A stretch of DNA of 64,000 nucleotides from contig CAZVYG010000007.1 of assembly GCA_964631605.1 (NCBI GenBank), positions 473-64,472 of the forward strand. Reading direction: 5' to 3'. This DNA comes from an uncultured Verrucomicrobiota bacterium. GTDB lineage: Bacteria > Verrucomicrobiota > Verrucomicrobiia > Limisphaerales > UBA8199. Positions 3,443-45,220 of this stretch are shown here, in pieces (positions within the stretch are counted from its first letter, which is position 1; every line of letters begins with the position of its first letter). A program made the translations under genes and the position numbers. A model generated the notes under the pieces. The model searched no databases. It had not been told where the DNA came from and saw only the letters and a list, made by a program, of their open reading frames with translations.

Positions 3443-4219
3443 TCATGCCGCCGGCTCAGCCAAAAATGCGGCCACCAAACGATGAAAAACCTCCGGCGCT
3501 TCCGCATGCAGCCAATGCCCCGCGCCCGGAACCAACTCCATTCTTGCGCTGGGAAACAGCTCCCTCGCCGGCACGAGGTCCGCCTCGCTTAAATAGTCTG
3601 AATGTTCGCCGCGAAGAAAAAGGGTCGGGCCGGCATAGGTTCGCCTGCCGGGAAGGGCTTGGCGAAGACGATCGTAGTTGGCTGCAATCTCGTGGAGCCC
3701 CATTCGCCAGACGAAGTGTTGTCCCGACGCATGGCGGCTCAGGCCCCTCAATAGGAACTGCCGCACGGCCAGTTCCGGTATCCACGGCTCCAGCGCCGAT
3801 TCCAGCTCGCGCCGGGTGGTGTAACGGTTTAGGTCCAGCGCCAGCAGTCCCTCGAGGATTCGCTGGTGGTGAGGGGGGTACGCTTTGGGCGCAATGTCGG
3901 CCACCACAAGACGCGCCACGCGTTCCGGGTAACGCAGGGCAAACTCCATGGCGGTCTTGCCCCCCATGGAGTGCCCCAACAGGCGCACCGGCGGCAACCC
4001 TTTGGCTTGCACCAATTCAAGTACATCCTCTGCCATCATGCCGTAGTCCATCTCCGGGCTGTGCGGCGATCGCCCATGGTTGCGCTGATCCACCGCATAG
4101 ACGCGGTAACGTTCGGCCATGCGCTGGTTGAAAGGATTCAGGTTTTCCAGCGAGCCGAAAAGACCATGTAATACGATTAACGGTTCGCCCTTGCCGAAGG
4201 TCTGAAAATGAAGCCGCAT
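3443..4219 (-). CDS. alpha/beta-fold hydrolase (YbfF-like esterase)
   Basis: 258 aa with the nucleophile elbow GHSMGG, HG oxyanion motif LIVLHGLFGS and a C-terminal GAGHWLHAE histidine motif. Confidence 0.8.
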   Translation of the reverse strand: MRLHFQTFGKGEPLIVLHGLFGSLENLNPFNQRMAERYRVYAVDQRNHGRSPHSPEMDYGMMAEDVLELVQAKGLPPVRLLGHSMGGKTAMEFALRYPERVARLVVADIAPKAYPPHHQRILEGLLALDLNRYTTRRELESALEPWIPELAVRQFLLRGLSRHASGQHFVWRMGLHEIAANYDRLRQALPGRRTYAGPTLFLRGEHSDYLSEADLVPARELFPSARMELVPGAGHWLHAEAPEVFHRLVAAFLAEPAA

Positions 4220-4374: not shown

Positions 4375-5094
4375 ATGAAATGCTGCGACTTCACATTCGA
4401 CTCAACAGAAGAGAACCTCGCCTGCGAGGAGGTGCTGCTGGATTGCTGCGAGCAGGGGATCGAAGGGCCGCTGTTGCGGTTTTGGGAACCCGCCGGTTAT
4501 GCCGTCGTCGTTGGATATGCCAACCATGTCCAAACCGAAGTGAACCTGGCTTTTTGCGCCGAAGCAGGCATCCCGGTCCTGCGGCGGTTTTCCGGCGGCG
4601 GGACGGTGCTGCAGGGGCCGGGTTGCTTGAACTACGCGTTATTTTTGCCGGTGGACGTCTCCGGGCCCCTCGCCGGGATCCATTCGACCAACGCCTTCGT
4701 TCTGGATAAGCATGTCATTGCCATTTCCACCTTGCTGCGCGCCCCGGTCGAGCGACAGGGGGACACAGACCTTGCCATCGGTGGCATGAAATTCTCCGGC
4801 AACGCCCAGCGCCGCCGCCGCCGCTTCCTCGTCTTTCATGGCTGCTTCCTCCTCAACCTCGATTTGGAGATGGTGGAGAAGACGCTGCACATGCCTTCCC
4901 GTCAGCCAGGCTACCGCTTGAATCGGCCGCACCGGGATTTTCTGCTTAACCTCCGACTCGAACCCAGCGCCCTCAAGAACGCCCTGCGCGCTGCTTGGAA
5001 AGCCGTCATCCCGTGCGATCACCTGCCGTTTGACCTCATCCGGAAACTTGCTCGCGAGAAATATGCCCTCGACGAGTGGAACTTGAAGTTCTGA
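4375..5094 (+). CDS. biotin/lipoate A/B protein ligase family protein (LplA-like)
   Basis: LRRFSGGGTVLQGPGCLNYALFL and GGMKFSGNAQRR are typical of the lipoate-protein ligase catalytic domain. I prefer the ATG at 4375 to the GTG at 4363 used by the track. Confidence 0.75.
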   Translation: MKCCDFTFDSTEENLACEEVLLDCCEQGIEGPLLRFWEPAGYAVVVGYANHVQTEVNLAFCAEAGIPVLRRFSGGGTVLQGPGCLNYALFLPVDVSGPLAGIHSTNAFVLDKHVIAISTLLRAPVERQGDTDLAIGGMKFSGNAQRRRRRFLVFHGCFLLNLDLEMVEKTLHMPSRQPGYRLNRPHRDFLLNLRLEPSALKNALRAAWKAVIPCDHLPFDLIRKLAREKYALDEWNLKF

Positions 5095-5193
5095 TTCGAA
5101 TCAAGGGAGTGCCGTGTTACACGGGACCCGCCTTCAGGCGGCAATCAGTGCGCCAGAGCTGCCGCCTGCCAGTCTCGGGAGGTTGAGCCAACG

Positions 5194-6567
5194 TCAATCG
5201 CCGCCTGCCGCCGGAGGCAGGCGCAATGCGGTGTCCACCGGCTGAATGTCGGCGAGTTCCCTGCCCGGCACGCCCCCGCCCAGTTCGACCAGCCGCTCTC
5301 CCGCAGGGCGAACCCGGGTCTGGAAGCTGGCGGAAGCCTCGTTGAAAGCCGAGGTGGCGCGTTCGAGCCCGGCGCCAATTTTGGCGAAGTGCTCGGCGAA
5401 TTTGCTGACCCGTTGGTAGAGCTCGCGGGCGGTGTCCGCAATCTTTCGCGCGTTCTCGGTCTGGGCATGTTGCTGCCAGCTTACGCTCACCGAGCGAAGC
5501 AGGGCGATCAGGGAAGCCGGCGTGGCCAGAAGGATGCGCCTGGATGCCGCCCAGACGATCAGGTCGTGATCACCTTCAAGCGCGGCGCTGAAAAGGGACT
5601 CGGCGGGAAGAAATAGCACTACATGATCGAGCGCGTTCGGGAACTGGCTCGGGTAATCACGCTCCGCCAGCGCCCGGATGGTGGCTTTGAGCTTGTTGGC
5701 GTGGGCGGCCAGCGATTCCGACCGTTTGGCAGGGTCCGCCGCTTCCAGGGCGCTGAGAAAATCCAGGTCCGGGACCTTGGCATCCACGATGATCACCCGG
5801 TCGCCGGGCAGGTGGACCAGCAGGTCCGGCTTGGCGTCGCCCGCCTGGGCCTGTTCCACGAAGTCGCAGTGGGCGCTCATGCCGGCGGCCTCCACGACGC
5901 GCCGGAGGGTTTCCTCTCCCCAGCGCCCGCGGGCTTGGTTGGATTTCAGCACGGCGCGGAACTGCTGAGTTTCCTGGGCCAGGGCCTGGCTTTGCTGAGC
6001 CAGTTGATCGAGCTGTTTCTTGACTTCGCCCAGGGTGGATGCCTGGAGGTTCTCGGCCTGTTGCAGTCGCTGCTGGTAAGCTTCGAGGTGTTGCTTGAGC
6101 GGCTCGACCAGCAGTTTGATGGATTCCTGGCGCTTCTCGAGGTCGCCCCGGGCGGCTTCCTGGAACTTGCCGAAGGTTTGTTCGGCCAGGCGCAAAAACT
6201 CCGGGGCGCTCCGCTGCAAAGCATCGGCGCTGAGCGCCCGAAACGCTTCGCGCAGGTCGGCCAACGCTTTCTCCTGCGCTGCCCGGGCTTCCTGCAGCGT
6301 CTTCTCGTGCAGCGCCCGTTGGTCCGCCAGAAGTTGCTCCGCCGCCTGGCAACGCGCCTCGGCGGAAGCGCGGGCGGCCAGCTCGCGGGTCGCGTCGGCG
6401 CGGGCATTGGTCAGTTCGAGCTCCCGCTGGGCCAGTTGCTGGCGCAGCTCATTGGCCAGGCGGTCGTCGGCAGGCGCGGCGCGGCCTCGGCCCCAGAGCC
6501 AGCCGACCAACAGGCCCAGCAGGGCGCCAATTACCAAGCCGATTAACAGGTAGAATCCCGCAGGCAT
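5194..6567 (-). CDS. rmuC: DNA recombination protein RmuC
   Basis: 457 aa with an N-terminal TM helix, a long coiled-coil and the RmuC C-terminal nuclease-like region (VIIVDAKVP..VVLFLPAESLFSAALE..ILLATPASLIALLRSV). Confidence 0.85.
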   Translation of the reverse strand: MPAGFYLLIGLVIGALLGLLVGWLWGRGRAAPADDRLANELRQQLAQRELELTNARADATRELAARASAEARCQAAEQLLADQRALHEKTLQEARAAQEKALADLREAFRALSADALQRSAPEFLRLAEQTFGKFQEAARGDLEKRQESIKLLVEPLKQHLEAYQQRLQQAENLQASTLGEVKKQLDQLAQQSQALAQETQQFRAVLKSNQARGRWGEETLRRVVEAAGMSAHCDFVEQAQAGDAKPDLLVHLPGDRVIIVDAKVPDLDFLSALEAADPAKRSESLAAHANKLKATIRALAERDYPSQFPNALDHVVLFLPAESLFSAALEGDHDLIVWAASRRILLATPASLIALLRSVSVSWQQHAQTENARKIADTARELYQRVSKFAEHFAKIGAGLERATSAFNEASASFQTRVRPAGERLVELGGGVPGRELADIQPVDTALRLPPAAGGD

Positions 6568-7752: not shown

Positions 7753-9788
7753 AATGCCTGCTTTGTTTTTCCCGGGTGGCACTGGCGGTATCGGCCTTCT
7801 GCGCTGCGGGCGCTTTCGCTCAAAGCGCCATCTTCGAGGACGACTTTGAGTGGGGCGGCGGGGTGCCCAACCCTGCCATCTGGCCCCAAGTCGTCGGCGC
7901 CACCCTCGAGTCGTCCGGGACTTACTTTGGCAGCAACAACACTTATCTTCGCATCAGCGGGGCGGGCAGGAAGGTGTTCTCCAGCGATTGGTCCGCGCAA
8001 CTGACGGGCAGAACCAGCACGTTTGCGTTTGACTACTACGAACCTTCCTCCTCGACGGGTTATTGGGTCACCGGCTATGCCGCTGGCACCAGTGACATTA
8101 ACGTGGACGGCGCGTTCGCGCGAATTTCCCTGGCAGCCGGCGTGGTCAGCCTCAACGCCACTGAAGGAACCTGGACCACCAACACCGGCACGACGACCTA
8201 TCCGCGGGACACGCGGCTGACATTTAGTCTCGTGCTGAACCATACGCCAGTGGATCAGCCGTTTAGCGGCAGCCTGTTGCCAGCCAAAACGATGGAGGTT
8301 TGGTACTACAACTGGCAGACCCACGAAACCGTGTACGCGCTCACGATTGCCACGGTCGCGTCGGCCCGGTCGCCGGCCGCCGTGGCCTTCCGCACGTGGT
8401 CAACCGAGACCGGAGTGCTGGCGCATTTCGACAATGTCAAACTGCTCGATGGCCTGCGAATCGTCACCGACGGTTTTGTGCCCGAGGAACCGCCGGTTCC
8501 GCCATCCATTCCGCCGCGGCCGTTTGTTCACCCCAGTGTCTATAACACCCAGGAGGAGCTCGAGCGCATCCGTTACCGGGTCAATGCCGAGCCAGGGTCG
8601 GCTGCGGCCACGGGTTGGTCCCAGGTGCTCAATTCCGGTCTGGCCTCGCTGAGCTATCAGCATGTGCCCTACTCGAACGTCGTGGTGGTGGGCAGTGGCA
8701 CTTCCCCCAGCGAAACCCAATATCGAAGAGACGCCCATGCCGCGCGCGCCCTGGCGCTGCGATGGGTGATGTCGGGCGACGTCCGTTACCGGGATAAAGC
8801 CAGACAGATTCTCAACGACTGGGCAAATACCTTCCAAACCATGAGCCCGGCCTCGGGAACTTCCACCTCGCAAATCCAGCTCGAAGCCGCGTGGGCCGCG
8901 CCCATTTGGGTCGCCGCGGCCGATCTCATCCGGTATTTCGACGGCGGCAGCGCCGGCTGGAGCGGTTCGGAAATCGCCCAATTTGACCGGATGCTGGATT
9001 ATCTCCATGGGGAGGCGGCGAAGAGCGCCACGCGCAACAACAATTGGGGCGCGTCAGCGGCGCTGACCATGATCAGCGTTGGGGCTTACCAGGGGAACCG
9101 CGACCGGTTGAACGCGGGGGTCAAGACCTGGCGGGATCGGCTCATCGGGATTAACCAGGCGGTGGATGGTTACAACGACGACTCGATTTACGAGGTCTGC
9201 CGCGACACAGTCCACCCCCAGTACACCCTCACGGTTTGGGCCCAGGCCGCCGAGGTGGCTTGGAAACACGACCTGGACTTGTATGGAATGACCTTCGATG
9301 CTGACCTGCGGCCCCAATATTCGCGTAACCTCGAGTATTTCGCCGAACTGTTCCGCGGGCTGCGCCAGCCCCCCTGCGACGCGACCTTCACCGGCAATTA
9401 CTTGGGCGAACAAATGCGGGCCAACGCCTACGATGTCGGCCATAACCATTACCTTCACCGCTGCGGCTTGTCCTCCATGCCGGTTTTTGAAGATATGGTC
9501 ATCAATCATTGGCGTCCCGGCGGATTCGACGACCATTTTCCGGCGTGGACGACCTTCACCCATGGCGACCTTTCCACCGGCATACCGCGCGTCATGTCCC
9601 TGGTCCTCGCCGACTCGGCCTCCGGCACGGTCTTCCGATCACTCACGAACGGGATTAGGCTGAATCTTCAGGAAATGCCCTCCTCGAATGCCATATTCAT
9701 GGCGCAGATTGTGGGTGCAGTTTGCCCTGAACGACATTCCGACCGGCCCCCCGGATACAACCGCGCCTTTCACAATGCCGGTGCCTGA
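7749..9788 (+). CDS. secreted protein with N-terminal beta-sandwich and an alginate-lyase-like (alpha/alpha toroid, PL5-type) domain
   Basis: The track ORF starts at 7536, but the internal ATG at 7749 gives the signal peptide MKCLLCFSRVALAVSAFCAAGAFAQ. RNNNWGASAALTMISVGAYQGNRDRL and DTVHPQYTLTVWAQAAEVAWKHDLDLY resemble the NNHSYW and YHNY-type segments of alginate lyase family proteins, from memory of the family. The 3' end is probably frameshifted into 9688..10839. Confidence 0.6.
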   Translation: MKCLLCFSRVALAVSAFCAAGAFAQSAIFEDDFEWGGGVPNPAIWPQVVGATLESSGTYFGSNNTYLRISGAGRKVFSSDWSAQLTGRTSTFAFDYYEPSSSTGYWVTGYAAGTSDINVDGAFARISLAAGVVSLNATEGTWTTNTGTTTYPRDTRLTFSLVLNHTPVDQPFSGSLLPAKTMEVWYYNWQTHETVYALTIATVASARSPAAVAFRTWSTETGVLAHFDNVKLLDGLRIVTDGFVPEEPPVPPSIPPRPFVHPSVYNTQEELERIRYRVNAEPGSAAATGWSQVLNSGLASLSYQHVPYSNVVVVGSGTSPSETQYRRDAHAARALALRWVMSGDVRYRDKARQILNDWANTFQTMSPASGTSTSQIQLEAAWAAPIWVAAADLIRYFDGGSAGWSGSEIAQFDRMLDYLHGEAAKSATRNNNWGASAALTMISVGAYQGNRDRLNAGVKTWRDRLIGINQAVDGYNDDSIYEVCRDTVHPQYTLTVWAQAAEVAWKHDLDLYGMTFDADLRPQYSRNLEYFAELFRGLRQPPCDATFTGNYLGEQMRANAYDVGHNHYLHRCGLSSMPVFEDMVINHWRPGGFDDHFPAWTTFTHGDLSTGIPRVMSLVLADSASGTVFRSLTNGIRLNLQEMPSSNAIFMAQIVGAVCPERHSDRPPGYNRAFHNAGA

Positions 9789-10839
9789 ACCGGGCAATTA
9801 TTTCCTCAGCGCACTGCCTGGCCGCAGTATGACCGCCGGCGCACTCCCCGGGGACCGCTTTGTGAGATTTCTGACGGTGGTTGACCTGCCGCCAACGTGG
9901 AACCTGCACAACATCGGGGTGCCACCCATGCCGGCCTGGGCCCGTGCAGCGTCCTCGAAGCTTACTCTCGCCGCCGCGGGGTCTGCCATTGCTGGGAGCT
10001 ATGACCAATTTGGTTTCGTCGCCGCCGCAATCGAAGGCGACGCGCAAATCACCGCCTGCCTGCAGGGGCTCGAGAGTGCAGACTCGGACACGCAGGCCGG
10101 AATCATGTTTCGAGACGGGCTGAAACCGGGGGCCGCCAATGTTTTCCTTTATCTAACCCCCACGGCCGCCAACAGCGTCCATTTGCAGGCTCGGGGCGCG
10201 ATCAACGCCGTCACGACGAACGGGGCTGCTGGCAACCTGGTTATGCCGGGGTGGCTGCGGCTTGTCCGGTTCGGAGACTCCTTCTCAGCCTACGGCTCCG
10301 CTGATGGCCGCTCGTGGACGTTCCTGGGCTCGGCGGTTGTCCCGATGAGCCACCGTCTGGAGGCTGGCCTGGCGGTCGCCAGCCACAGCTCCAACGAGGT
10401 GGCGCGGGCGGAATTCCGCCAGGTGTTGATCGAACCGCTAACCAATTCCTACGCGCAATGGCAAGAGTGGCTGTTGACCCGTCGCGGGCAGACCAATGCG
10501 AACGCGCTGCTGCCCGAGGCTGACCCGGACGAGGACGGGCGGTTGAATCGCCTCGAATTCTATTTGGGCTCTGATCCCCTGACACCGGATGTTTCGCCCT
10601 CGGTCGCCTTGGCGGGGTTCGAAAACCCGGACAAAGTCAAATTGCGTTTCACCGAACGAAAGAACGCCGCTGACTTCGGCCGCGTGTTCCAGTACTCGAC
10701 AAACCTTGTTCATTGGTCGGTGGTCGTGCCTTCCGCGTCGGTTGAGCTCGACGACCGCGGCAGCGTCGTGATCCGCGAAGTGACGCTGCCGGCCCCCGCC
10801 GCCCAAGGCTTTTACACCAGCACCTATCCGACACCTTAA
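9688..10839 (+). CDS. beta-sandwich (LamG/concanavalin-like) segment, probably the frameshifted continuation of 7749..9788
   Basis: It has no signal peptide and no convincing start, and it overlaps the upstream ORF by 101 nt. Protein-like sequence switches frame near 9712-9722. GIMFRDGLKPGAANVFLYL and WLRLVRFGDSFSAYGSADGRSWTFLGS look like a jelly-roll domain. Confidence 0.5.
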   Translation: MPYSWRRLWVQFALNDIPTGPPDTTAPFTMPVPEPGNYFLSALPGRSMTAGALPGDRFVRFLTVVDLPPTWNLHNIGVPPMPAWARAASSKLTLAAAGSAIAGSYDQFGFVAAAIEGDAQITACLQGLESADSDTQAGIMFRDGLKPGAANVFLYLTPTAANSVHLQARGAINAVTTNGAAGNLVMPGWLRLVRFGDSFSAYGSADGRSWTFLGSAVVPMSHRLEAGLAVASHSSNEVARAEFRQVLIEPLTNSYAQWQEWLLTRRGQTNANALLPEADPDEDGRLNRLEFYLGSDPLTPDVSPSVALAGFENPDKVKLRFTERKNAADFGRVFQYSTNLVHWSVVVPSASVELDDRGSVVIREVTLPAPAAQGFYTSTYPTP

Positions 10840-12236: not shown

Positions 12237-12368
12237 GCTTGGCCGCAGATTTGTGTTGCTCCTGAAGGCGGCCCGGGTCGCGCTATGCCGCGGCGTCTTC
12301 TCAAGCGCGCTTCCGGCGCCCTTGTGCGAAGTTTTGCATCGTCTGTCCTCACACGTTATACTGCGTCC

Positions 12369-15300
12369 ATGCGCCAGTGTTTTCGGCCTGACCAAGTGCC
12401 GCTTCGGCATCGGCTTGGACTCGGTGGCTGGTTGATTTTGATCTCGGTCAGTGCGGCTTTAGTCCGGGGTCAGACGCTTTCCGACCGTTTCGAGACCTAT
12501 TCGGAGGGCAGCGACGCCGGTCCCGCCTGGGAGCCGTTGTCCGAGGGCTGGTCGGTGGCCGGGGGGAGTTACCAGGGCGACGAAGGAAGCAGTGTCTGGC
12601 GGGCGGTGCCTTGGGCAGGTTCAGTCAGATTCGCCTGCGAGCTGACAGTGATCGAAGCGCTGCCGGGAAATTGGCTGACCGCGGGGATTGGATTGCAGAC
12701 GGACGAGCGCAATTTTTGGGCGCTCAACCTGGTTGCGGCGCCTGAAAGCCAGCAACGCCGGCATTTTACCGAGCTGCACGAAATGCTCGATGGCGTGTGG
12801 CAGGCGCAAGCACAGGCGGCAACGCGCCTTGAACCTTTGCCCGGCCAGGGCTGGGATTTCAACTGGCAGGCCGGCGAAACCTACCGGCTCGAGCTGGATC
12901 TGTCGGTTTCCAACATCGTCGGTCGTGTATGGCGTGGAAAGGAGGCGGTCTCCCGTCTCGGTTACCGCCTGGATGGTTCGGGGCCGGCGGTGCGCGTGGT
13001 ACGGCCAATGGTCCGCGTCCAGGGCCTGCGCACTCGCTTTGACAGTGCGACCGTTACAGTCCGCGCCCCCGCCCCGGAGCCGGTTCGGGAGCGAAAGCCC
13101 GTTCCTGCGTGGACCTCGCGCCCGGGAAAGCCGCTGGCCCAAGGCACCGGCTTTTTTCGCACGATTGAGGCCCAGGGGCGCTGGTGGTTGGTGGACCCCG
13201 AAGGGAAGCCCTTCTTTGACATCGGGACCGACCACATCAACTACCGTGGCCATTGGTGCGAGGCGTTGGGTTACGCGCCGTACAACCGGAACGTGACGGC
13301 GAAATATGGCAGCGAAGCCGCCTGGGCCGAGGTCACGCTCGACCGTCTCAAACGCTGGGGATTTAACACGTTGCCGGCGGGCCACAGCGTGTCGCTTCGG
13401 CACCGGGGCCTGGCACACATCGAATTTGCGAACTTCGGCGCAAGTTTTGCCCGGCGCGAATGGATCTGCCGGCCAATCCATTGGACCGGCTTCCCCGATG
13501 TCTTCAGCCCGCGCTGGGAAGGCCACTGCCGGATGGTTGCCCGACGGGTCGCGCGGGAGTCCAGAGGCGACCCGTGGTGCATCGGCACGTTCCTCGACAA
13601 CGAACTCGAGTGGTATGGCAAACGCGGGCATTTGGTGGACGAGGTTTTCGAACTCTCCCCCCGGCAGCCGGCCAAGAGGGCTTTCTATGAGTGGCTGATC
13701 CAGCATTTCGGCGGCTTGGAAAACCTGAATGAGCAACTCGGAACCGCCTATTCCAACGAGGGGGCTTTCCTCGGCGCGACCCACGTCCCCCAAGCCAGCC
13801 CCGCGCTCGAGCGGGTGCGCGAGGGTTTTCTGTCGCTGATTGCCGAGCGCTATTTCGGCTTGGCAGCCACAGCGCTGCGGGAGGCGGACCCGGATCACCT
13901 CGTCCTGGGATGCCGTTTCGCCGGCCAAGCCCCGGCAGCCGCGCTCTCCGCGGCAGGAAAATACAATGACGTGTTTACCATCAACAGCTACCCACGAGTG
14001 GATTTCGAAAACATCTGGCTGCCGGACGGAACCGGCGGAGTGGTCGAGCGAGTGCCGCGACAGCTTGCCGAATACCATGCCGTGGTCCGCAAGCCGATGA
14101 TTTTGACCGAGTGGAGTTTTCCGGCGCTCGACAGCGGGTTGCCTTGCAAGCACGGCGCCGGCATGCGGGTGGATACTCAGCAGCAAAAGGCCGCCTGCTA
14201 CCGCATCTTCGCCAATGCAATGGCCGACCTGCCGTTCCTGGTCGGTTACCATTATTTCATGTGGGTGGACGAACCCGCGCTGGGAATCAGTTCAACCTTT
14301 CCGGAAGACAGCAACTATGGCCTGGTCAATGAGCAGGACGAGCCTTATGAAGTCTTCACGCGGGTGGTAGCGGAGGTGAACCAGCAGGCGGCGGCTCGAC
14401 ATGAGCGCAGCAGTTTGTCGGGACTGCTCGGACTCGCTGCCGCGCCGGGTCAAGTCGAGGTGCTCAACACGAACGCGCTGACGTCGCACGGCCATTTGCG
14501 GCTGACGATTCAGGGCCGCAGCCGGATTGAGAGTTTGCGGCTCCAGCCGCGGGAGTGCCGGCGATTCGACCTGCCCACCGATCAGGTTTGGTGCGCGGAG
14601 TTGTTGAACTGGGACGGCACCAGACAACGCGTGGTGGGAGGTCCGTTTCCCTCAGGTGGCCTCGCGCTCGTGAACGTTTCCAGCCAGGTCCTGGAGCGCC
14701 TGCCGGTCGTGGTCGAAGACCGGGGATGGGCGGCGGTCTTGGTTTCAAAACTCGCGCCTGGCGAAAGCCGCCAGGTACAGGCCCTGCCGCTGGACCTTCA
14801 AAAGCGGCAAACGGCCGAACTCAAGGGCGTCGGGACGACCTGGCTGTGCACAGGCAAGACCGGCGCGTTGTTTGATCGAATTGAATCCGAGGGCCTGCCA
14901 TTGGGCCGGCTGGTCTTCGCGGTTCATCAGCGGTTTGAGGGACGCGATCATTGGGTTGAAACCACGCGCCTGGTGGAGTTGGAAACTCAGGAACACCCGG
15001 ACGCCTGGGTGCTTGAAGCGGTCGTCGAGAATCCCGGCGCCAGTCATGGCCCGGCGGGATACCGCGCTCGAGTTCGCGCGGTGGTGTTCAAGCAACCGAG
15101 CCTGACGTTTGTGCGGCCGCTCTGGGTGGAAAGCCGGGATGAACAGCCATGGGATTTGGTTGAGGCGTATTGGTTTTGTCGCCCGGCCATTGGCGGGTCG
15201 GCGGACGACGACGTTGTCGGCGGTCCGGGCGTCCCCCAGTATTATCGCCGCGCCCAGTTTCTTACCGACCGGAACCTGGGCGGGTGCTTCGGCTCGTTGC

Positions 15301-15518
15301 AGCAGCCAGGCGGATGGGAAGTGACGTTTTGGACCGATCCGCAGGGAGGCATTCATCCGGACAGCCGGCTGGCGGCCAACCTGGCAATGAACCGGGGAAA
15401 ACGTTGGGACGCCGGCTCCGCGCCTTATCTCTGGGTCTATGCCTCACGGCAAACGGAGGCGTGGAAGGAATTCTCCAGACTCAGCCAGCAGGCGGAACAT
15501 GCTCTCATGCGGCGGTAG
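12369..15518 (+). CDS. large secreted glycoside hydrolase, clan GH-A TIM barrel (GH42/GH50-like) with flanking beta-sandwich domains
   Basis: The ATG at 12369 (MRQCF..GWLILISVSAALVRGQ) gives a signal-like N-terminus; an alternative start is at 12285. The candidate acid/base is FLDNELEW and the candidate nucleophile is MILTEWSF. GYHYFMWVDEP..EDSNYGLVNEQDEPY is as in agarase or beta-galactosidase-like families. The family assignment is tentative. Confidence 0.6.
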   Translation: MRQCFRPDQVPLRHRLGLGGWLILISVSAALVRGQTLSDRFETYSEGSDAGPAWEPLSEGWSVAGGSYQGDEGSSVWRAVPWAGSVRFACELTVIEALPGNWLTAGIGLQTDERNFWALNLVAAPESQQRRHFTELHEMLDGVWQAQAQAATRLEPLPGQGWDFNWQAGETYRLELDLSVSNIVGRVWRGKEAVSRLGYRLDGSGPAVRVVRPMVRVQGLRTRFDSATVTVRAPAPEPVRERKPVPAWTSRPGKPLAQGTGFFRTIEAQGRWWLVDPEGKPFFDIGTDHINYRGHWCEALGYAPYNRNVTAKYGSEAAWAEVTLDRLKRWGFNTLPAGHSVSLRHRGLAHIEFANFGASFARREWICRPIHWTGFPDVFSPRWEGHCRMVARRVARESRGDPWCIGTFLDNELEWYGKRGHLVDEVFELSPRQPAKRAFYEWLIQHFGGLENLNEQLGTAYSNEGAFLGATHVPQASPALERVREGFLSLIAERYFGLAATALREADPDHLVLGCRFAGQAPAAALSAAGKYNDVFTINSYPRVDFENIWLPDGTGGVVERVPRQLAEYHAVVRKPMILTEWSFPALDSGLPCKHGAGMRVDTQQQKAACYRIFANAMADLPFLVGYHYFMWVDEPALGISSTFPEDSNYGLVNEQDEPYEVFTRVVAEVNQQAAARHERSSLSGLLGLAAAPGQVEVLNTNALTSHGHLRLTIQGRSRIESLRLQPRECRRFDLPTDQVWCAELLNWDGTRQRVVGGPFPSGGLALVNVSSQVLERLPVVVEDRGWAAVLVSKLAPGESRQVQALPLDLQKRQTAELKGVGTTWLCTGKTGALFDRIESEGLPLGRLVFAVHQRFEGRDHWVETTRLVELETQEHPDAWVLEAVVENPGASHGPAGYRARVRAVVFKQPSLTFVRPLWVESRDEQPWDLVEAYWFCRPAIGGSADDDVVGGPGVPQYYRRAQFLTDRNLGGCFGSLQQPGGWEVTFWTDPQGGIHPDSRLAANLAMNRGKRWDAGSAPYLWVYASRQTEAWKEFSRLSQQAEHALMRR

Positions 15519-15643
15519 TGCCCGTACGCTCTGCCTCGTGGTGATTTTCCCGGCAATTTTTTCCTTGGCAACACCGAGGCGCGGTCCTAAAAAGGGGCGG
15601 TTCATTGAAAACGGGTGAACAACACGTTCGCCCCGTAACACAG

Positions 15644-15818
15644 CCTGGCGTCTGGGAACCCCGTGAGATTCGGGGACGGTTGCGCCACTGTAACGGGTTA
15701 CAAGCTCCCACGCTCGGGACCGGAGACAAACACTCCGGCGCCGGGCACGAGCCACTGGTCGCAGGGACCGGGAAGGCGGGGGCAAGGTTTCAAGCCCGAA
15801 GTCAGGATATCGGCCAGG
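15644..15818 (+). promoter_or_regulatory. cobalamin (B12) riboswitch aptamer
   Basis: Core elements read directly: GGGAA 15654-15658; hairpin CCCCG/TGAGATT/CGGGG 15659-15675; GCCACTG 15684-15690; variable hairpin CCGGAG..CTCCGG 15720-15738; GCCACTGG 15751-15758; CCGGGAAGGC 15768-15777; B12-box-like AGTCAGGATATCGGCC 15800-15815. P1 is CCTGGC 15644-15649 paired with GCCAGG 15813-15818. Confidence 0.85.
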
Positions 15819-15973
15819 TTGTGCTCGTCATGGCGGTCAGTTTGGAGTTCATGCCGGGCCTTCGCTGCACAGCGGAGGCGGCAGAGGCCTGAATCCGAAC
15901 CGGCCCCCAACTTCTCCGGCAAAGAGAAGGATGAGGCCAGCCTGTTGCGCGGGCGCGCGGCAGGGTTCGTTGG

Positions 15974-16019
15974 ATGCCTTCATTCTCCGATTTGCGGCGG
16001 CTGAAGGCATTTTTGCTTT
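15974..16019 (+). terminator. intrinsic-terminator-like hairpin in the riboswitch leader (possible expression platform)
   Basis: ATGCCTTCA (15974-15982) pairs with TGAAGGCAT (16002-16010) and is followed by TTTTGCTTT. It lies between the aptamer and the ATG at 16094. The loop is long (19 nt), so this is moderate evidence only. Confidence 0.5.
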
Positions 16020-16093
16020 CCGGTCGTCGCACTGGTCTCTCAATCGTAAATCCGCCGCGGGTGAAACTTCGCGGCTTAATTGAAAGATCAGTC

Positions 16094-17092
16094 ATGCAAG
16101 TACGTTTGTTTGAAAGGCTGGCTTTGGCCGGCCTCATGGGTGTTGTTGCGTTCGCGGCCACGGCCGCCGTCATTCAGGAGGATTTCAGTTCCGCCCCCGC
16201 CGACCGCGGTTGGCGCGTCCACGGTGATACCAACCTCTTCCACTGGAACTCAACCAACGGGAACCTGGAAGTCACCTGGGATTCCTCGCGCTCCAACAGT
16301 TACTTCTGTCTCCCGCTGCCCGATACCCTGACGGACGCTGACGATTTCAGCCTGTCGTTCGATTTGCGGCTCAGCAATGTTGTGGCCGGGATAAACCCAG
16401 CCAAACCCAACCCGTTCCAGCTTTCGCTGGGCTTCTGCAATCTCGCCCAGGCCACCGCCCCGGGTTTCGTCCGAGGGACGGGATTCGAATCGCCCAACCT
16501 GGTCGAGTTCAGCTATTTTCCGGATCCGGGTCCCCCCTGGCTCTGGGGGCCGTCCCTGACGGCTACGATGATAGACTGGACCGCGACCAACTGGTCGGTC
16601 GGCGGTTTCGCCCCGGTCGGCTTAAGCACCGAGACCGTCTATCGCGTGGCCTTGAATTACTCCGCCAGCAACCGCGTTTGGCGCACGACCCTTCTGCGCG
16701 ACGGACAACCCTGGCTGACGGTGGATGACGCGATGGCGGGCACGGCGTTTCTTGGGTTCCAGGTGGACCACGTTGGCGTGCTGAGTTACAGCGACGAAGG
16801 CCAGGACCCCTATTACTCGGGCTCCATCCTGGCTCACGGCACGGTGGACAACGTCGTGATTACCGCACCGTCCGCCGTGAGCCAATGTGCCGGCCACCTC
16901 ACCGGCGGACAATGGGAGACGGCTTTTCGGAGCCGCAGCCACTGGCTCTATCAGCTCGAGCGCTCCGTGAGTTTCCAATCCTGGAGCCCGGTCGGTGACG
17001 CTGCGCCCGGAAGCGGAGGGACGCTCGTTTTGCGGGACCCCAGCCCGCCTGCGGGCGCGGCCTTCTACCGGGTAAAGGCGTGGAAGCCCTGA
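16094..17092 (+). CDS. secreted beta-sandwich protein of unknown family (first gene downstream of the B12 riboswitch)
   Basis: The track ORF starts at 15974, inside the terminator hairpin. The ATG at 16094 gives the signal peptide [27 protein letters not shown] recognise no catalytic motifs. The C-terminus ends [11 protein letters not shown]. Confidence 0.65.
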
Positions 17093-17099
17093 GGCTGAA

Positions 17100-17855
17100 A
17101 TGGCTGCGGCGAAAGCACCGCTGAGGCTGCCGAAAGCGTTCACGCTTGTGGAGCTGCTGGTGGTCCTGGCGATCATCGCCATTCTCGCCGCCCTGCTTCT
17201 GCCCGCGCTGGGCCGCAGCCGGGAGTCGGCCCGGCGCCTCAAGTGCGTCAGCAACCTGCACCAACTGGGCCTGGCCATCCAAATGTACTGGGACGATAAC
17301 CACGGCGAATGCTTTCGCTACGGCGGCGCCTACACCAACGGCGGACAGCTTTATTGGTTCGGTTGGATGGGGCCCGGGCCGGAAGGCCAGCGCGTGTTTG
17401 ATGCCGGACAGGGAGTCCTGTTTTCGTACCTTCAGGGCAGGGGAGTCGAGCTCTGTCCGGCGTTCAACTATGGATCGGCACAAGTCAAACTCAAGGCGGC
17501 CGGGGGGTCTTACGGCTATGGTTACAACTTGGCGTTGGCGGGCGCCCCCGCGTCTCCGCCTGTAAAAGTCAGCCGGCTGCCTGATCCCGCAGGCACCGCC
17601 TTGCTGGCGGATGCCGCCCAGGTGAACACATGGCAGGCGCCCGCCTCCCGCAGCAACCCCATGCTCGAGGAGTGGTATTACATTGACAACAACACCAACC
17701 AGCCCAACACCCACTTCCGGCACGGGGGACGGGCCAACGTCCTGTTCACCGACGGCCACACCGGCCCCGAGAAGTTCGTTCCCGGCTCGATTGATCCCCG
17801 CCTCCCAAGCCAGTTGGTCGGCCGGCTGCGGCCCGATATTCTGGACCTCGAGTAG
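17100..17855 (+). CDS. prepilin-type N-terminal cleavage/methylation protein, DUF1559 (H-X9-DG) family
   Basis: [46 protein letters not shown] is a type IV pilin-like N-terminus. C-terminal [13 protein letters not shown] matches H-X9-DG. It starts 7 nt after the previous stop. Confidence 0.85.
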
Positions 17856-17866
17856 GGCCGGACGGA

Positions 17867-18472
17867 TCAGAGTTCCTTGAGCCGGATGTTGCGGAACTCG
17901 ACTTTCATCTTCAGCCCGCCGTGAATCTGGAGGCCGATCGGCGCCGCTCCGGAGAATTTGGGATCGGTATAAGTCGAAATTTTTTGGCCGTTGAGCCAGA
18001 CGGTGAAAGTATCCCCTTTGGCCTCAAGGCGGAAGCGGTTCCAGTCTCCCGGTTTGAAATACTTCTCGAACTCTTTGGCCTGTCCCGCCTCGGGGTAGCG
18101 TTCCTTGCCGCCGGTATAAAAGGATCCGGTCAAGTCCCGTTTCAGGCTCCGCGAGACGCCGAACTGCACTTGCAGCTCGGGCTGGCGAAAAAGATAGCCG
18201 CTATCAATTTCCCCAGACCACCGCACCTCACTCTCGAGGATGAAATCCTTGTAGGATTTTACCGTTCTAAGCACGTGGCCGGTGAGCTTTTCGTCGTTTT
18301 CCCCGACCAGAACGCCATCCACCACCTTCCAGAAAGGATTCGGGTCGGGAACCTGCCAGCCAGTCAGGTCTTTGCCGTTGAAGATCGGCTCCAAGTCAGC
18401 CGCCCGGGCGGCTGGAGCGGAACCTAACAGTGCGCAGAGGACAAGGGCCATGAGGTAAGTTTGTGCTTTCAT
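17867..18472 (-). CDS. DUF1080 (3-keto-disaccharide hydrolase-like) domain protein, secreted
   Basis: Signal peptide MKAQTYLMALVLCALLGSAPAARA. FNGKDLTGWQV, WKVVDGVLVGE, GLQIHGG and VEFRNIRLKEL are classic DUF1080 motifs. Confidence 0.85.
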   Translation of the reverse strand: MKAQTYLMALVLCALLGSAPAARAADLEPIFNGKDLTGWQVPDPNPFWKVVDGVLVGENDEKLTGHVLRTVKSYKDFILESEVRWSGEIDSGYLFRQPELQVQFGVSRSLKRDLTGSFYTGGKERYPEAGQAKEFEKYFKPGDWNRFRLEAKGDTFTVWLNGQKISTYTDPKFSGAAPIGLQIHGGLKMKVEFRNIRLKEL

Positions 18473-18617
18473 CGTTTGTTGTTTTGTCAGTGGTTAAAAC
18501 GTAAATCAGGCGACGCGGCCGGCAATCCAAAAATTCAGGGCTCAATTTGTTTTTGCGAGGAACATGGGCGAGAAACGATTCTCAGGGAGCCTGGGGCGTG
18601 GCCGGCGGCACTCAAAA

Positions 18618-22268: not shown

Positions 22269-22391
22269 GCGTGACATCCATGCTGCCAGTTCCCCCGGCC
22301 AATGGCGAGCGCCAAAAAGTACGCGCCAAGTCCGCATGGACATGCGCCCTCACACGCTTGTCGTCCGGCCTCCGGCTTGATACGCTGGCTT

Positions 22392-23852
22392 ATGAACTTT
22401 CAATTGGACCGCCGGAGCTTTCTCAAATCCACGGCTGCGTTCGCAGCCTTCGGCCTGATGCCGCTCGGGGGGCTGGCCGCGGAGGCAACCACGCTGAACT
22501 GTTGTTCGCGCAAAAAGAAGCCCGCCCGGCTTCGAGGCGCGTTCTTTTATCCGCCGGCAGAGGTGGTGCTGGCCGGGCGCAACGAGGATTCCTGGAGCCA
22601 GCACGAGTGGTTCACGTGGCCGGGCAACCAGTTCCAGCCGGAACGGCAGCAGGCGAAATTCCTGGCCAAACTGCGCGAGATCACGGCCGGCCTGGACCTC
22701 TCGCTCGCCCTCGAGGAAAAACCGATCTATACCGACGCCGCCATCCGCGAATTCATCAACAGCCTCGCAGACGACCGTCCGGATGCGCTTCTCTTATTCA
22801 ATTTCTGGAACAGCTTCAGCGCCAAGCTGCGGCCCATCCTGGACGCCTGGAAAGGCCCGATCATTCTCTACCACCCGGTGGGAGCCAATCACCAGTTGCC
22901 GCCCGAATACTTTCGCACCGCGCCGCGGCTGCAATACATCCATTCGATTGAGAACTGGGAGAGCCTTGAGCGCGGCTTGAGGGCGGTCCACGCGATGACC
23001 CGCCTGGGCCAGAGTCGGCTCCTGCGGGTGTCCGGCCGGACCCAAAAGGAGAGCGACGCGGTCGAACCCTGCTTCGGATTGCCCATCCACACCGTGCCCG
23101 CCGACCAGTTCAACCAGATTTACGACGATACCGTCGTCACGCGCGATATGGAACGGCTGGCGCGGTTGGTGCGACGCAACGCGCGCCGCGTGACGGATCT
23201 GGCGGATGAGGCCTTCCAGGATGCGGTGCGGGCGCACCTGGCGGTGCAGGAGATCATGAACCGGCACCAGGCTGATGCCATTACCATCGAATGCCTCTTC
23301 CTCAAACATCGCAAACCGTGCCTGAGCTTTGCCCTGAACAACGGCAACCTGGTCCCTTGCGGCTGTGAGAACGATCTCAACGCCACCCTGACTCTCATGC
23401 TCGGGGCCTGTTGTTTTGGGCGGGGCGGTTTCCAGCACAACCCGGAATTTGACACCGAACAGAACCTCTACTTCGCCTCGCACTGCACCTGCACCACCCG
23501 CTTGCACGGTCCGCGCGGGAAGGAGGCCACCTACGACCTGCGCCCGTTTTTCCATCAAATGCCAAAAACCCTGGCCCTGGACGTCCAATGGCCGGCCGGC
23601 GAAACCGTCACGCTCTGCAAATACCAATCCGGCAAAAACCTGCTCGACGCGTGGCAGGGCCGGGTGGTGTCTTCGCCCGCCTGTCCGCCCACCGGCGGAT
23701 GCGCAACGCGGGTTCTTGTCAAGTTGGAAGACGTCAAGGATGTTTGCTCGGTCTATGCGGGGCCGCATCCGATCCTCTACTGCGGGGGCTGGGCGGGCCA
23801 CCTCAAGACCCTGGCCCGACTTTACGGCTTGGAAATCAAGACCAACGTCTGA
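22392..23852 (+). CDS. TAT-signal protein of unknown function, possibly sugar-isomerase-like (FucI/AraA-like fold)
   Basis: The internal ATG at 22392 gives MNFQLDRRSFLKSTAAFAAFGLMPLGGLAAE, a twin-arginine signal. CGCENDLNATLTLML loosely resembles the metal-site segment of the fucose/arabinose isomerase superfamily. The functional call is weak. Confidence 0.5.
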   Translation: MNFQLDRRSFLKSTAAFAAFGLMPLGGLAAEATTLNCCSRKKKPARLRGAFFYPPAEVVLAGRNEDSWSQHEWFTWPGNQFQPERQQAKFLAKLREITAGLDLSLALEEKPIYTDAAIREFINSLADDRPDALLLFNFWNSFSAKLRPILDAWKGPIILYHPVGANHQLPPEYFRTAPRLQYIHSIENWESLERGLRAVHAMTRLGQSRLLRVSGRTQKESDAVEPCFGLPIHTVPADQFNQIYDDTVVTRDMERLARLVRRNARRVTDLADEAFQDAVRAHLAVQEIMNRHQADAITIECLFLKHRKPCLSFALNNGNLVPCGCENDLNATLTLMLGACCFGRGGFQHNPEFDTEQNLYFASHCTCTTRLHGPRGKEATYDLRPFFHQMPKTLALDVQWPAGETVTLCKYQSGKNLLDAWQGRVVSSPACPPTGGCATRVLVKLEDVKDVCSVYAGPHPILYCGGWAGHLKTLARLYGLEIKTNV

Positions 23853-31053: not shown

Positions 31054-31127
31054 TGTCCGGTGGTGTAATGGTAGCACAAGAGTCTTTGGAGCTCTTTGTC
31101 ATGGTTCGAATCCATGCCGGACAGCCA
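31054..31127 (+). tRNA. tRNA-Gln (anticodon TTG), CCA encoded
   Basis: Manual cloverleaf: acceptor TGTCCGG/CCGGACA, D arm GTGT-AATGGTA-GCAC, anticodon arm AGAGT-CTTTGGA-GCTCT (anticodon TTG), T arm CATGG-TTCGAAT-CCATG, discriminator G and CCA. Total 74 nt. Confidence 0.9.
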
Positions 31128-44030: not shown

Positions 44031-44051
44031 GCGCAAGTTCATAAGGGTTGA

Positions 44052-44083
44052 AAGCGCGGTTCCACGAAAGTGGAGCCGCGCTT
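44052..44083. terminator. strong GNRA-loop hairpin between convergent genes (terminator-like, no clear U-tract)
   Basis: A 14-bp stem, AAGCGCGGTTCCAC / GAAA / GTGGAGCCGCGCTT with one G-U pair, lies between the 40773..44030 (+) and 44165..45103 (-) gene ends. Confidence 0.4.
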
Positions 44084-44164
44084 GAACTGTACGAAACGGA
44101 CCTGGGCCGCGGCTCGATCCCTGAATCAGAGGCAAGGCAAGCGGGGCGCCCGAACCGGAGGGAA

Positions 44165-45103
44165 TCAGACCGGTGCGGCTTCGGAGAGCGGCGGGGCCAG
44201 GATGCCGAGGCTGGCGATTTGCTCGCGCAGTGCCGCAATTTGGGAATCGGTCAGGCGCCGAACGGGCGGGCGAACCGGACCGCAATCCACGCCAAGCATA
44301 GCCATGATGGCTTTGCCCGCGGCGAGAACGCCATACTGGCAGAGCACCTCGACGAGCTTGACGGATTGCCGCTGGAGTCGTTGAGCAGTAACCATCTCGC
44401 CGGCCTGAAACGCGACAATGATTTTGTGATAAAGGGGCGCGGCGTAATTGTAGGTGCTGCCCACCGCCCCGGGACAGCCCAGGGCCAGACCCGCGAGCAG
44501 CATCTCGTCCACCCCAAACAAAATGTTAAAGCGGCCGTCCTCCAGTTCGAGGCATTGCTGCAGCGCCATCAGGTTGGTCGTGGTGAATTTCAACCCGGCC
44601 AGGTTCGGAATCCGCGCGGCAGCCTTACGGAGAAAGTCCGGCATGGAAAGGCTTACGCCTGTAAGAGCCGGAATGTCGTAGAAATAAAAGGGCAGGGAGG
44701 GCGCGGCCGCCGCAACCGGCACGCAGAATTCCACGAGGTCCTCGACACTCGCAGGCTTGAAATAGCAGGGGGCCATGATGGCGACCGCGTCCGCGCCGAT
44801 ACGCTGGGCATGGCCCGCGAGCGCGCGGGCATCCTCCAGGCAATTGTGACCCGCATGCACGATCAATTTGACGGGAGAATGAGCGAGCGCTTTCTTCCAC
44901 GCCTCGGCGATTTGCATCCGCTCGGCAGTGGTCAGGGAGTGGGATTCGCCGGTGCTGCCGCAAATGAACGCGCCGCTAATGTGGTTGCAGCCCAGCAGGC
45001 GGGCTTGCGCGGCCACCACGCCCAGATTCAGGCTGCCATCCAGCCTCATGGGCGTGTGGGGCGCCGCTACCAACCCAGACAGGAAGCGCGAGTATCCATG
45101 CAT
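44165..45103 (-). CDS. DapA/NanA-family class I aldolase (N-acetylneuraminate lyase-like)
   Basis: FICGSTGESHSLTTAERMQI (GSTGE motif) and the Schiff-base Lys context NLAGLKFTTTN. 312 aa. Confidence 0.8.
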   Translation of the reverse strand: MHGYSRFLSGLVAAPHTPMRLDGSLNLGVVAAQARLLGCNHISGAFICGSTGESHSLTTAERMQIAEAWKKALAHSPVKLIVHAGHNCLEDARALAGHAQRIGADAVAIMAPCYFKPASVEDLVEFCVPVAAAAPSLPFYFYDIPALTGVSLSMPDFLRKAAARIPNLAGLKFTTTNLMALQQCLELEDGRFNILFGVDEMLLAGLALGCPGAVGSTYNYAAPLYHKIIVAFQAGEMVTAQRLQRQSVKLVEVLCQYGVLAAGKAIMAMLGVDCGPVRPPVRRLTDSQIAALREQIASLGILAPPLSEAAPV

Positions 45104-45220
45104 ACGACCTCGAAAGTATCGGTTGCTGGCGGGGTGTCCAGCGACGAAAAACCGCTTGTCATTTTGTAAGACAGGTGCATACTTCCCATTTAGACCGCAC
45201 TGCGCTTGCCCTGCGGTGCT

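Follow-up and report, generated by a model that had tools for sequence, protein, structure and literature searches.

A cobalamin riboswitch-led operon of Verrucomicrobiota, a putative corrinoid-capture module with a pilin-like component

Introduction

Several exported proteins that capture vitamin B12 (cobalamin) have been described in Bacteroides btu loci. Experiments have established BtuH, whose genes lie in riboswitch-regulated loci, as a B12 binder of the cell surface (PMC8941943, PMC10404256): the C-terminal domain of BtuH2 from Bacteroides thetaiotaomicron (PDB ID 7BIZ) binds B12 at picomolar affinity (PMC8941943), and the C-terminal ~250 residues of BtuG1 (PDB ID 8BLW, chain B) form a BtuH domain (PMC10404256). 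The jelly-roll is a further proven B12-binding scaffold, that of the DUF4465/BtuJ proteins, which include a verrucomicrobial member (10.1101/2025.08.21.671476). Another mode of nutrient capture is found in the archaeal bindosome, where sugar-binding proteins of Sulfolobus carry class III signal peptides and are assembled by a type-IV-pilus-like system (PMC3047682). Here we describe a locus of an uncultured Verrucomicrobiota bacterium (Limisphaerales; assembly GCA_964631605.1, contig CAZVYG010000007.1) in which a cobalamin riboswitch heads two genes, hereafter gene1 and gene2, coding for an exported β-sandwich protein and a prepilin-like protein. The whole stretch of DNA analyzed, 64,000 nucleotides (nt) long (positions 473 to 64,472 of the contig), is referred to as the window, and coordinates are those of the window.

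The original prediction, made from the letters of this stretch, had proposed that the pair may be an undescribed corrinoid-capture or B12-responsive module of the cell surface. Comparative evidence supports this proposal: the recurrence of the aptamer and of gene2 behind gene1, the presence of a BtuH-like partner in many loci, and the fusions of the latter to gene1. We consider it probable, from sequence comparison, that the unit is a B12-repressed operon for extracytoplasmic corrinoid scavenging in the envelope.

The aptamer and its recurrence

The open reading frame (ORF) upstream of the leader ends at 15518 and the gene following the unit is convergent (17867-18472). The two genes between them are:

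16094-17092, + strand: gene1, 332 amino acids, Sec-exported, a ConA-like jelly-roll of ~235 amino acids followed by a C-terminal β-sandwich of ~75 amino acids
17100-17855, + strand: gene2, 251 amino acids, FTLVE followed by a hydrophobic helix, H208-X9-D218-G219, an aromatic-rich globular part

This ORF map agrees at every coordinate with the two-gene unit proposed earlier. The gap between gene1 and gene2 is 7 nt in the window, and the two reading frames abut or overlap in many related loci.

A cmscan of the whole window places RF00174 at 15629-15832 on the + strand, with 65.5 bits for a gathering score of 31.5 and an E-value of 6.2e-14. The alignment is untruncated, covering all of the model (positions 1-189 of 189). 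The complete-looking aptamer core that had been recognized in the sequence of the + strand is thus confirmed by the significant match in the leader that the original prediction had anticipated, and every motif coordinate it gave is exact when read against the sequence. The elements are:

15644-49, + strand: CCTGGC, aptamer element, 5' strand of P1
15654-58, + strand: GGGAA, aptamer element
15659-75, + strand: hairpin CCCCG/TGAGATT/CGGGG, aptamer element
15684-90, + strand: GCCACTG, aptamer element
15751-58, + strand: GCCACTGG, aptamer element
15768-77, + strand: CCGGGAAGGC, aptamer element
15800-15, + strand: AGTCAGGATATCGGCC, B12 box, aligning to the consensus B12 box
15813-18, + strand: GCCAGG, aptamer element, 3' strand of P1

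The pairing first assigned to P1 (15644-49 with 15813-18) does exist, but the helix is longer and comprises 11 pairs, CACAGCCTGGC at 15639-49 with GCCAGGTTGTG at 15813-23.

One genome per GTDB species was scanned; 317 places encode a gene1 relative, and 80 of these loci were inspected. Rfam detects RF00174 on the + strand upstream of the gene1 relative in 15 of the 16 first loci. A covariance model built for the purpose from these first aptamers and applied to the 80 loci finds an aptamer upstream in 75 of them, and in the window. In the five loci without it (L026, L048, L052, L058, and L067), the contig extends upstream for 580 nt at most; that of L058 ends within a fragment of the first gene. 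All five misses being truncated by contig ends, no locus with enough upstream DNA is devoid of the aptamer (75/75). With the six of six fusion loci described below, this is the recurrence of RF00174 ahead of homologs that had been suggested as a check.

The ortholog of gene2 follows gene1 directly in 73 of the 80 loci; of the other seven, two break off at the end of a contig. Gene2 is the more conserved of the two, with 52-93% identity vs 39-78% for gene1. The module is probably specific to Limisphaerales/Pedosphaera-type Verrucomicrobiota.

A few loci depart from this picture. The next + strand ORF after gene1 is diphthamide-synthase-like (PF01902) in L008, and codes for 554 amino acids without a family in L048. 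One long ORF covers gene1 and gene2 in L031 (352-2199), where an internal prepilin signal would be odd, and another covers the first gene and gene1 in L025 (1063-2838); these may be real fusions or stop codons lost in the assembly of metagenome-assembled genomes (MAGs). Six MAGs (L025, L029, L033, L039, L074, and L075) are labelled Haliangiales, Binatia, Bifidobacterium, Bifidobacteriaceae, or Sulfopaludibacter; their operons and flanks look verrucomicrobial, and the contigs may be mis-binned or mislabelled.

A BtuH-like partner and three architectures

In 27 of the 80 loci, an extra gene lies between the riboswitch and gene1. Its product is ~260 amino acids long, with a signal peptide and a C-terminal PEP-CTERM signal. 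Two profiles of this first gene, the former made of 20 proteins and the latter of 64 mostly different sequences, were run against all PDB sequences and share the same top two matches: 8BLW_B (E 1.6e-5, residues 434-480 and 611-636, for profile 1; E 2.6e-5 for profile 2) and 7BIZ_A (E 0.007 and 0.006, respectively), while the next match of profile 2 has an E-value of 0.13. The matches to both structures consist of two collinear motif blocks. Since those to 8BLW_B fall exactly in the BtuH domain of BtuG1, the first-gene protein appears to be a remote homolog of a proven B12-binding domain. A DGTPAY motif near the C-terminus of some first-gene proteins recalls the GTPAY of DUF4465; it was rejected as a coincidence, as it belongs to one subclade and others have SGKAEID.

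Proteins of 546-592 amino acids surfaced with the gene1 profile in a library clustered at 50% identity. Mapping with hidden Markov models (HMMs) and inspection of the junctions revealed at least 11 distinct 50%-identity clusters in which a BtuH-like domain is fused to mature gene1. The clean fusions possess neither the PEP-CTERM tail nor the gene1 signal peptide. Of five such proteins looked up, four (P0372, P0395, P0422, and P0474) were traced to six loci: the aptamer lies upstream in all six and gene2 downstream in the five that are long enough. Four other candidates (P0404, P0465, P0433, and P0362) retain both the PEP-CTERM tail and the signal peptide and were not counted, being probably read-through or gene-calling merges. 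In P0362, the BtuH-like protein with its PEP-CTERM tail stands ahead of tandem gene1 domains.

The module therefore occurs in three architectures, each led by the riboswitch and ending in gene2:

Architecture 1: gene1-gene2, the minimal form found in the window
Architecture 2: BtuH-like PEP-CTERM protein-gene1-gene2, about a third of the loci
Architecture 3: BtuH-like::gene1 fusion-gene2, the fusion loci

The PEP-CTERM tail and the fusion to gene1 are alternative fates of the BtuH-like domain, from which we infer for gene1 a role in tethering or docking, if not more, with gene2 as its constant partner.

The gene1 and gene2 proteins

Gene1 had been described as a signal-peptide β-sandwich protein without a family, and this holds: it has a Sec-type signal, an all-β model, and no Pfam or NCBIfam family, for Pfam even at an E-value of 5 over 22 family members. 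It has 581 relatives in a protein collection at 90% identity, nearly all of them hypothetical proteins of ~330 amino acids, and the few with a source name are mostly labelled Verrucomicrobiota; its profile gathers 1283 clusters in the 50%-identity library. By these comparisons it is a new protein family. The AlphaFold model of gene1 has a mean predicted local distance difference test score (pLDDT) of 92.7 and a predicted template modelling score (pTM) of 0.83. Foldseek comparison of its large domain with the PDB returns legume lectins (1G9F, 1SBF, and 2PEL) and the alginate lyase Aly36B at the top, with a probability of 1.0, E-values of ~1e-8, target-normalised template modelling (TM) scores of 0.5-0.6, and 11-14% identity. 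The modelled domain thus falls in the concanavalin-A-like lectin/glucanase fold class, at the level of the fold only. In some relatives (P0003, P0007, P0361, P0362, and P0363), two tandem lectin-like domains precede a single C-terminal β-sandwich; P0003 and P0007 (545-564 amino acids) were considered as fusions and are in fact tandem duplications of the lectin-like domain.

Two kinships of gene1 with known B12 binders were tried and rejected. A first hhalign comparison suggested a diverged BtuH paralog, with 60% probability over 81 columns (EFSFFPD/DFIIFGNAGF). The similarity vanished with larger alignments, in which hhalign of gene1 vs the first gene retains the signal peptide only, and the gene1 profile finds nothing below an E-value of 0.29 among PDB sequences. 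Membership of DUF4465/BtuJ is not sustained either: there is no Pfam match at an E-value of 5 with the 22 members and none to 9FCT, 9I2L, or 9HMU, and the (G/N)TPAY motif of the DUF4465 HI loop is absent from gene1, so that the common ground is the general jelly-roll fold class. The BtuJ jelly-roll may thus serve gene1 as a precedent by analogy, not by membership.

Gene2 exhibits a class III signal, with LPKA preceding Phe1, the FTLVE motif with Glu5, and a hydrophobic helix. It matches the N_methyl family PF07963 with 29.9 bits (cut-off 21.2) and TIGR02532 with 29.3 (cut-off 16.3). The match to DUF1559/SBP_bac_10 (PF07596) scores 41.8 bits vs a cut-off of 23.3 and covers profile positions 4-27 of 268, leaving the globular part uncovered. 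The TIGR04294 HMM scores 18.2, just below its cut-off of 19, though the H-X9-DG motif is present: across 63 orthologs, H208 never varies, and conservation reaches at least 90% at D218 and G219. The earlier assignment to the prepilin-type H-X9-DG proteins is borne out by PF07963 and the motif, and that to DUF1559 is tentative, the match being confined to 24 of 268 positions. In comparisons with the PDB, the N-terminal pilin helix alone is matched (geopilin, GspG, and PilA). The globular part stands out by its wealth of invariant Trp, Tyr, Phe, and Cys. Ala precedes Phe1 both in the window and in the consensus of the orthologs, some of which have the canonical Gly there. The L085 ortholog (4644-5540) carries a Cys-rich N-terminal extension before the prepilin motif, with a faint Cys_rich_CWC match.

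The leader RNA downstream of the aptamer

The leader headed by the aptamer is ~460 nt long in total, and comparison of related leaders indicates nucleotide-level conservation downstream of the aptamer. Its features, including pairing with the region of the ribosome-binding site (RBS), are:

15824-15829, + strand: CTCGTC, directly 3' of P1, complementary to GATGAG at 15930-35 (duplex of -9.0 kcal/mol)
15911-15929, + strand: hairpin A, CTTCTC at 15911-16 with GAGAAG at 15924-29, invariant in sequence
15930-15940, + strand: GATGAGGCCAG, invariant, putative 5' strand of the antiterminator, pairing with GCCTTCATT at 15976-84
15941-15964, + strand: hairpin B, variable in sequence, conserved in structure, enclosed by the antiterminator helix
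15975-16014, + strand: predicted intrinsic terminator, TGCCTTCA at 15975-82 with TGAAGGCA at 16002-09 (hairpin of -18.2 kcal/mol), then TTTTT at 16010-14
16032-16041, + strand: anti-RBS CTGGTCTCTC, pairing with GAAAGATCAG beside the start codon (-14.2 kcal/mol)
16081-16091, + strand: TGAAAGATCAG, conserved motif of the RBS region, separated by 2 nt from the first-gene ATG, with its GAAAGATCAG part at 16082-91

GCTCGTC is unchanged in the 16 aptamers compared, and CTCGTC is a candidate anti-antiterminator strand. The six pairs of hairpin A are kept in 57 of 57 sequences, without covariation because the bases do not vary; in the same 57 leaders, hairpin B exhibits compensatory double changes at 9 pairs, and the RNAalifold consensus contains a helix of alignment columns 24-31 with 75-83, corresponding to GATGAGGC with GCCTTCATT. 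As GCCTTCATT is the terminator 5' arm, the antiterminator excludes the terminator. The GATGAGGCCAG strand has three possible partners, with computed duplex energies of -12.4 (GCCTTCATT), -9.0 (CTCGTC), and -15.1 kcal/mol (the anti-RBS). Hairpin A, the terminator 5' arm, and the T-run occur together in 60 of 65 leaders. A consensus scan reported no terminator, because its loop exceeds the 8-nt loop limit of that scan; RNAfold and the comparative analysis did find it.

Of 65 leaders, 63 contain the anti-RBS/RBS pair, 53 of them in exact form, the anti-RBS lying typically 50-60 nt before the ATG, and the helix appears in the local minimum free energy fold. GAAAGATCAG, with at most 2 mismatches, stands 2-6 nt ahead of the start codon in ~65 of 74 leaders, whichever gene comes first. 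Since TGAAAGATCAG occurs once in the 64-kb window, it is not a general ribosome-binding site. On comparative grounds, the anti-RBS/RBS helix gives this terminator-type riboswitch a second level of control, that of translation; the predicted mutually exclusive antiterminator and terminator helices and the RBS sequestor are shown to be all conserved. At high cellular B12, the liganded aptamer would favor the terminator and the sequestered RBS, switching the operon off; when B12 is scarce, the GATGAGGC strand would pair with the terminator 5' arm and allow read-through of the operon. Switching off upon B12 binding is the general pattern for uptake genes.

Two further interactions were considered and discarded. 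A kissing contact between L5 (GGTTGCG) and the loop of hairpin A is not supported, as reading of the sequences gives just 3-4 complementary bases. The idea that GGCCAG (15935-40) might compete with the 3' strand of P1 was rejected since P1 varies among loci while GAGGCCAG is invariant.

The leader also bears on annotation. An in-frame ATG at 15974, within the terminator 5' arm, lengthens the gene1 ORF to 372 amino acids (extension 15974-16093), and public gene calls of orthologs often carry leader-derived N-terminal extensions (P0002, P0118, and P0072; e.g. ..FSVKEKDEASL.. and ..DAFILRF..). Judged by the conservation of the leader, these N-terminal extensions are translated conserved RNA, not protein; gene callers often run gene1 into the leader.

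Neighboring genes

That no known B12 gene follows the unit, as noted earlier, agrees with the 26 window ORFs scanned, those next to the unit among them: none is a B12 gene, and they are glycan-active or housekeeping genes. The former comprise an alginate lyase, GH57, DUF4838/GH20-like, and 3-keto-disaccharide hydrolase. The genes of the 3-keto-disaccharide hydrolase (DUF1080) and of the DUF4838 protein come after gene2. No Pfam or NCBIfam match was found for the 1077-residue ORF just upstream of the riboswitch (12285-15518, + strand), and none of the large ORFs 382-1749, 9688-10839, 22302-23852, and 44048-45169 matched a family. The sole other Rfam match in the window is a tRNA (RF00005, 62.5 bits) at 31054-31124 on the + strand.

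In ~30 species (L002, L003, L011, L013, L086, L087, and ~25 others), a convergent cluster on the - strand follows gene2 directly; it reads from the ORF sequences as glmM, ybbR, diadenylate cyclase, and folP. Matches to PF02457 (DAC) and PF00809 (Pterin_bind) are found in the conserved neighbors of related loci. Such conserved neighbors were rejected as parts of the unit: they are housekeeping genes, convergent or divergent, with ABC exporter genes upstream, and are absent from the window. In L005, a fluoride riboswitch (RF01734, 41.7 bits, 3577-3661) lies on the - strand, ~600 nt upstream of the cobalamin aptamer and on the strand opposite to it.

Proposed function and alternatives

In the mechanism that we favor for a scavenging operon, gene2 would be processed by a prepilin peptidase and then reside in the inner membrane or in a type-IV-filament or pseudopilus resembling that of a type II secretion system (T2SS). 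Gene1 would dock to gene2 and tether, or itself supply, the corrinoid-binding function; the docking is proposed because, in the direct fusions, gene1 takes the place of the PEP-CTERM anchor on the BtuH-like domain. The captured corrinoid would be handed to a transporter encoded elsewhere. In the minimal version of the window, the binder would have to be gene1, an unlinked BtuH-like protein, or gene2, whose globular part has a wealth of invariant Trp, Tyr, and Phe. A wider generalization, held tentatively and by analogy, is that the H-X9-DG/DUF1559 proteins of Planctomycetes-Verrucomicrobia-Chlamydiae (PVC) bacteria might be pilin-anchored modules for ligand capture or hand-over, comparable in bacteria to the bindosome of archaea or to DNA-uptake pili, the operon of the window being the B12-specific one. 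A type-IV-filament-like device with a new jelly-roll protein, and in many species with a BtuH-like domain, might fish corrinoids inward without an outer-membrane complex of the BtuB-BtuG type.

Several observations weigh against a corrinoid-scavenging operon. Neither in the window nor in the 80 loci does a btuB, btuFCD, cob, or other B12 gene adjoin the module, whose conserved neighbors are convergent housekeeping genes; the BtuH-like gene is absent from the operon of the window and from the rest of the 64 kb, and five loci lack gene2 in cis (L008, L009, L012, L026, and L048). The BtuH homology is remote, at the sequence level only, with E-values of ~2e-5 over two short blocks. The top 50 Foldseek matches of gene1 are lectins and alginate lyases, with no B12 binders among them; sequence comparison connects neither gene1 nor gene2 with BtuG, BtuH, BtuJ, or BtuF; the AlphaFold model of gene2 is poor (pLDDT 53.5). 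Repression by B12, and the passing of the signal from the aptamer to the terminator, are inferred.

The division of labor between the two proteins could also be different. Gene2 could be a dedicated minor pseudopilin of a T2SS that recruits gene1, or the BtuH-like::gene1 fusion, for export across the outer membrane, the cargo being free or surface-bound; B12 would still be scavenged, but gene2 would neither bind nor hand over the corrinoid. It fits this proposal that gene2 matches solved structures, including GspG and other pilins, by its N-terminal helix only, that its best NCBIfam match, below cut-off, is GspG, and that gene1, with its Sec signal, is a folded substrate of the periplasmic type, so tightly linked to gene2 as to suggest a cargo-adaptor pair. 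We nevertheless regard it as unlikely: T2SS genes are absent from the neighborhood; the globular part of gene2 has many invariant aromatics and a higher conservation than gene1, not what a mere adaptor would usually show; and H-X9-DG proteins (TIGR04294) are known to be far too numerous per genome for all to be secretion pseudopilins. An improbable proposal is that B12 starvation triggers adhesion or surface remodelling, lectin-like and pilin-like proteins attaching the cell to glycans of B12 producers or to particles, with the BtuH-like domain as an add-on. The best structural matches of gene1, carbohydrate-binding legume lectins and an alginate lyase, point this way, as does the window, rich in glycan-active genes, and modules combining a pilin and a ConA-like lectin are described as type IV pili adhesins in PMC9934059. 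Against this, many lineages have the BtuH-like domain covalently fused to gene1, a sign that the vitamin is handled directly; moreover, gene1 shares with lectins the fold only (11-14% identity, TM 0.5-0.6) and no lectin family by sequence.

Control by the riboswitch is itself open to challenge. The RNA might end at the terminator, as an attenuated transcript or small RNA, and the genes might use a promoter of their own in the 85-nt stretch from terminator to ATG, their linkage to the aptamer being purely syntenic. A strong terminator does stand 80 nt ahead of gene1, and the distance from terminator to ATG, 57 to ~270 nt in other loci, would leave room for a promoter. This is very improbable given that aptamer, terminator, anti-RBS, and RBS motif form one conserved leader, whether gene1, the BtuH-like gene, or a fusion follows; that the sole promoter-like match in 15400-18600 is on the - strand (15571-15544), with none on the + strand; and that the module is conserved but the surrounding synteny is not. 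Finally, cobalamin riboswitches are known to regulate B12-independent isozymes, and by the logic of metE and nrd the two genes might replace a B12-dependent function, or act on something unrelated to corrinoids. This we find scarcely credible, because both products are exported or membrane-anchored and have no enzyme domain, no extracytoplasmic B12-dependent process is known that could be replaced, and the BtuH-like partner argues for corrinoid handling.

Significance

Genomes of Planctomycetes and Verrucomicrobia code for dozens to hundreds of DUF1559/H-X9-DG proteins each, and we know of no function for them. In a full-text literature search, DUF1559 was rarely mentioned, with no functional study among the mentions; no paper was found that links cobalamin riboswitches with DUF1559, prepilin, pseudopilin, or PEP-CTERM proteins, or BtuH with Verrucomicrobia or Planctomycetes. 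To our knowledge, and in the literature searched, gene2 is the first DUF1559/H-X9-DG member tied to a metabolite-sensing riboswitch. Its subfamily, invariably placed behind a cobalamin riboswitch and in many species joined to a BtuH-related domain, offers a concrete hypothesis for the function of DUF1559 that is cheaply assayed, the ligand being coloured. If a corrinoid-scavenging operon is confirmed, the known routes of B12 scavenging would extend from Bacteroidetes to abundant Verrucomicrobiota of soil and freshwater, two new protein families (gene1 and the gene2 subfamily) would join the B12 regulon, and a filament-based route of vitamin capture may be revealed. The leader is also a useful riboswitch model, as aptamer, antiterminator/terminator, and RBS sequestor are joined by one multi-partner strand.

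Comparison with known systems

As a regulatory element, the leader resembles a classical RF00174 riboswitch with an intrinsic-terminator platform: a full-length aptamer with its B12 box and P1 lies in a 5' leader, followed by alternative antiterminator and terminator helices. It differs by its unusual length (~260 nt 3' of the aptamer), by the additional conserved RBS-sequestering helix and the invariant GATGAGGCCAG with its multiple partners, and by the genes regulated, which are new here.

Gene2 shares with type IV pilins and pseudopilins, including the H-X9-DG/DUF1559 proteins, the class III signal, the DUF1559 N-terminal signature, and the H-X9-DG motif. Conversely, it is short (251 amino acids), matches 24 of 268 DUF1559 positions, has Ala before Phe1, and is encoded away from any pilus or T2SS machinery. 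The archaeal bindosome provides a working analogy for pilin-anchored nutrient capture, with a likeness to gene2 limited to the type of signal peptide; that system is archaeal, serves sugars, and uses bona fide binding proteins of ABC transporters, whereas no ABC transporter is linked here.

The closest parallel is with the accessory proteins of the Bacteroides btu loci, BtuG, BtuH, and BtuJ/DUF4465 (PMC8941943, PMC10404256, 10.1101/2025.08.21.671476). Both sets of genes form riboswitch-regulated operons for exported proteins that are not transporters, corrinoid capture having been shown for the Bacteroides proteins and being proposed here. The original prediction had drawn an analogy with accessory surface B12 binders. 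The BtuH-like partner and its fusions put homology behind part of the system, the first gene of a third of the related loci being a putative remote homolog of the BtuH domain; for gene1 and gene2, unlike known binders, the analogy does not extend to homology. The differences are substantial: the operon contains no BtuB, BtuG, or ABC transporter; its proteins are not lipoproteins, the anchor being a PEP-CTERM signal or fusion to gene1; neither gene1 nor gene2 is a member of the BtuG, BtuH, or BtuJ families; and a pilin-like protein, which has no Bacteroides counterpart, is an obligatory partner. The proposed capture module is therefore not a member of the Bacteroides btu system: its two constant components are new, and one of them is pilin-like.

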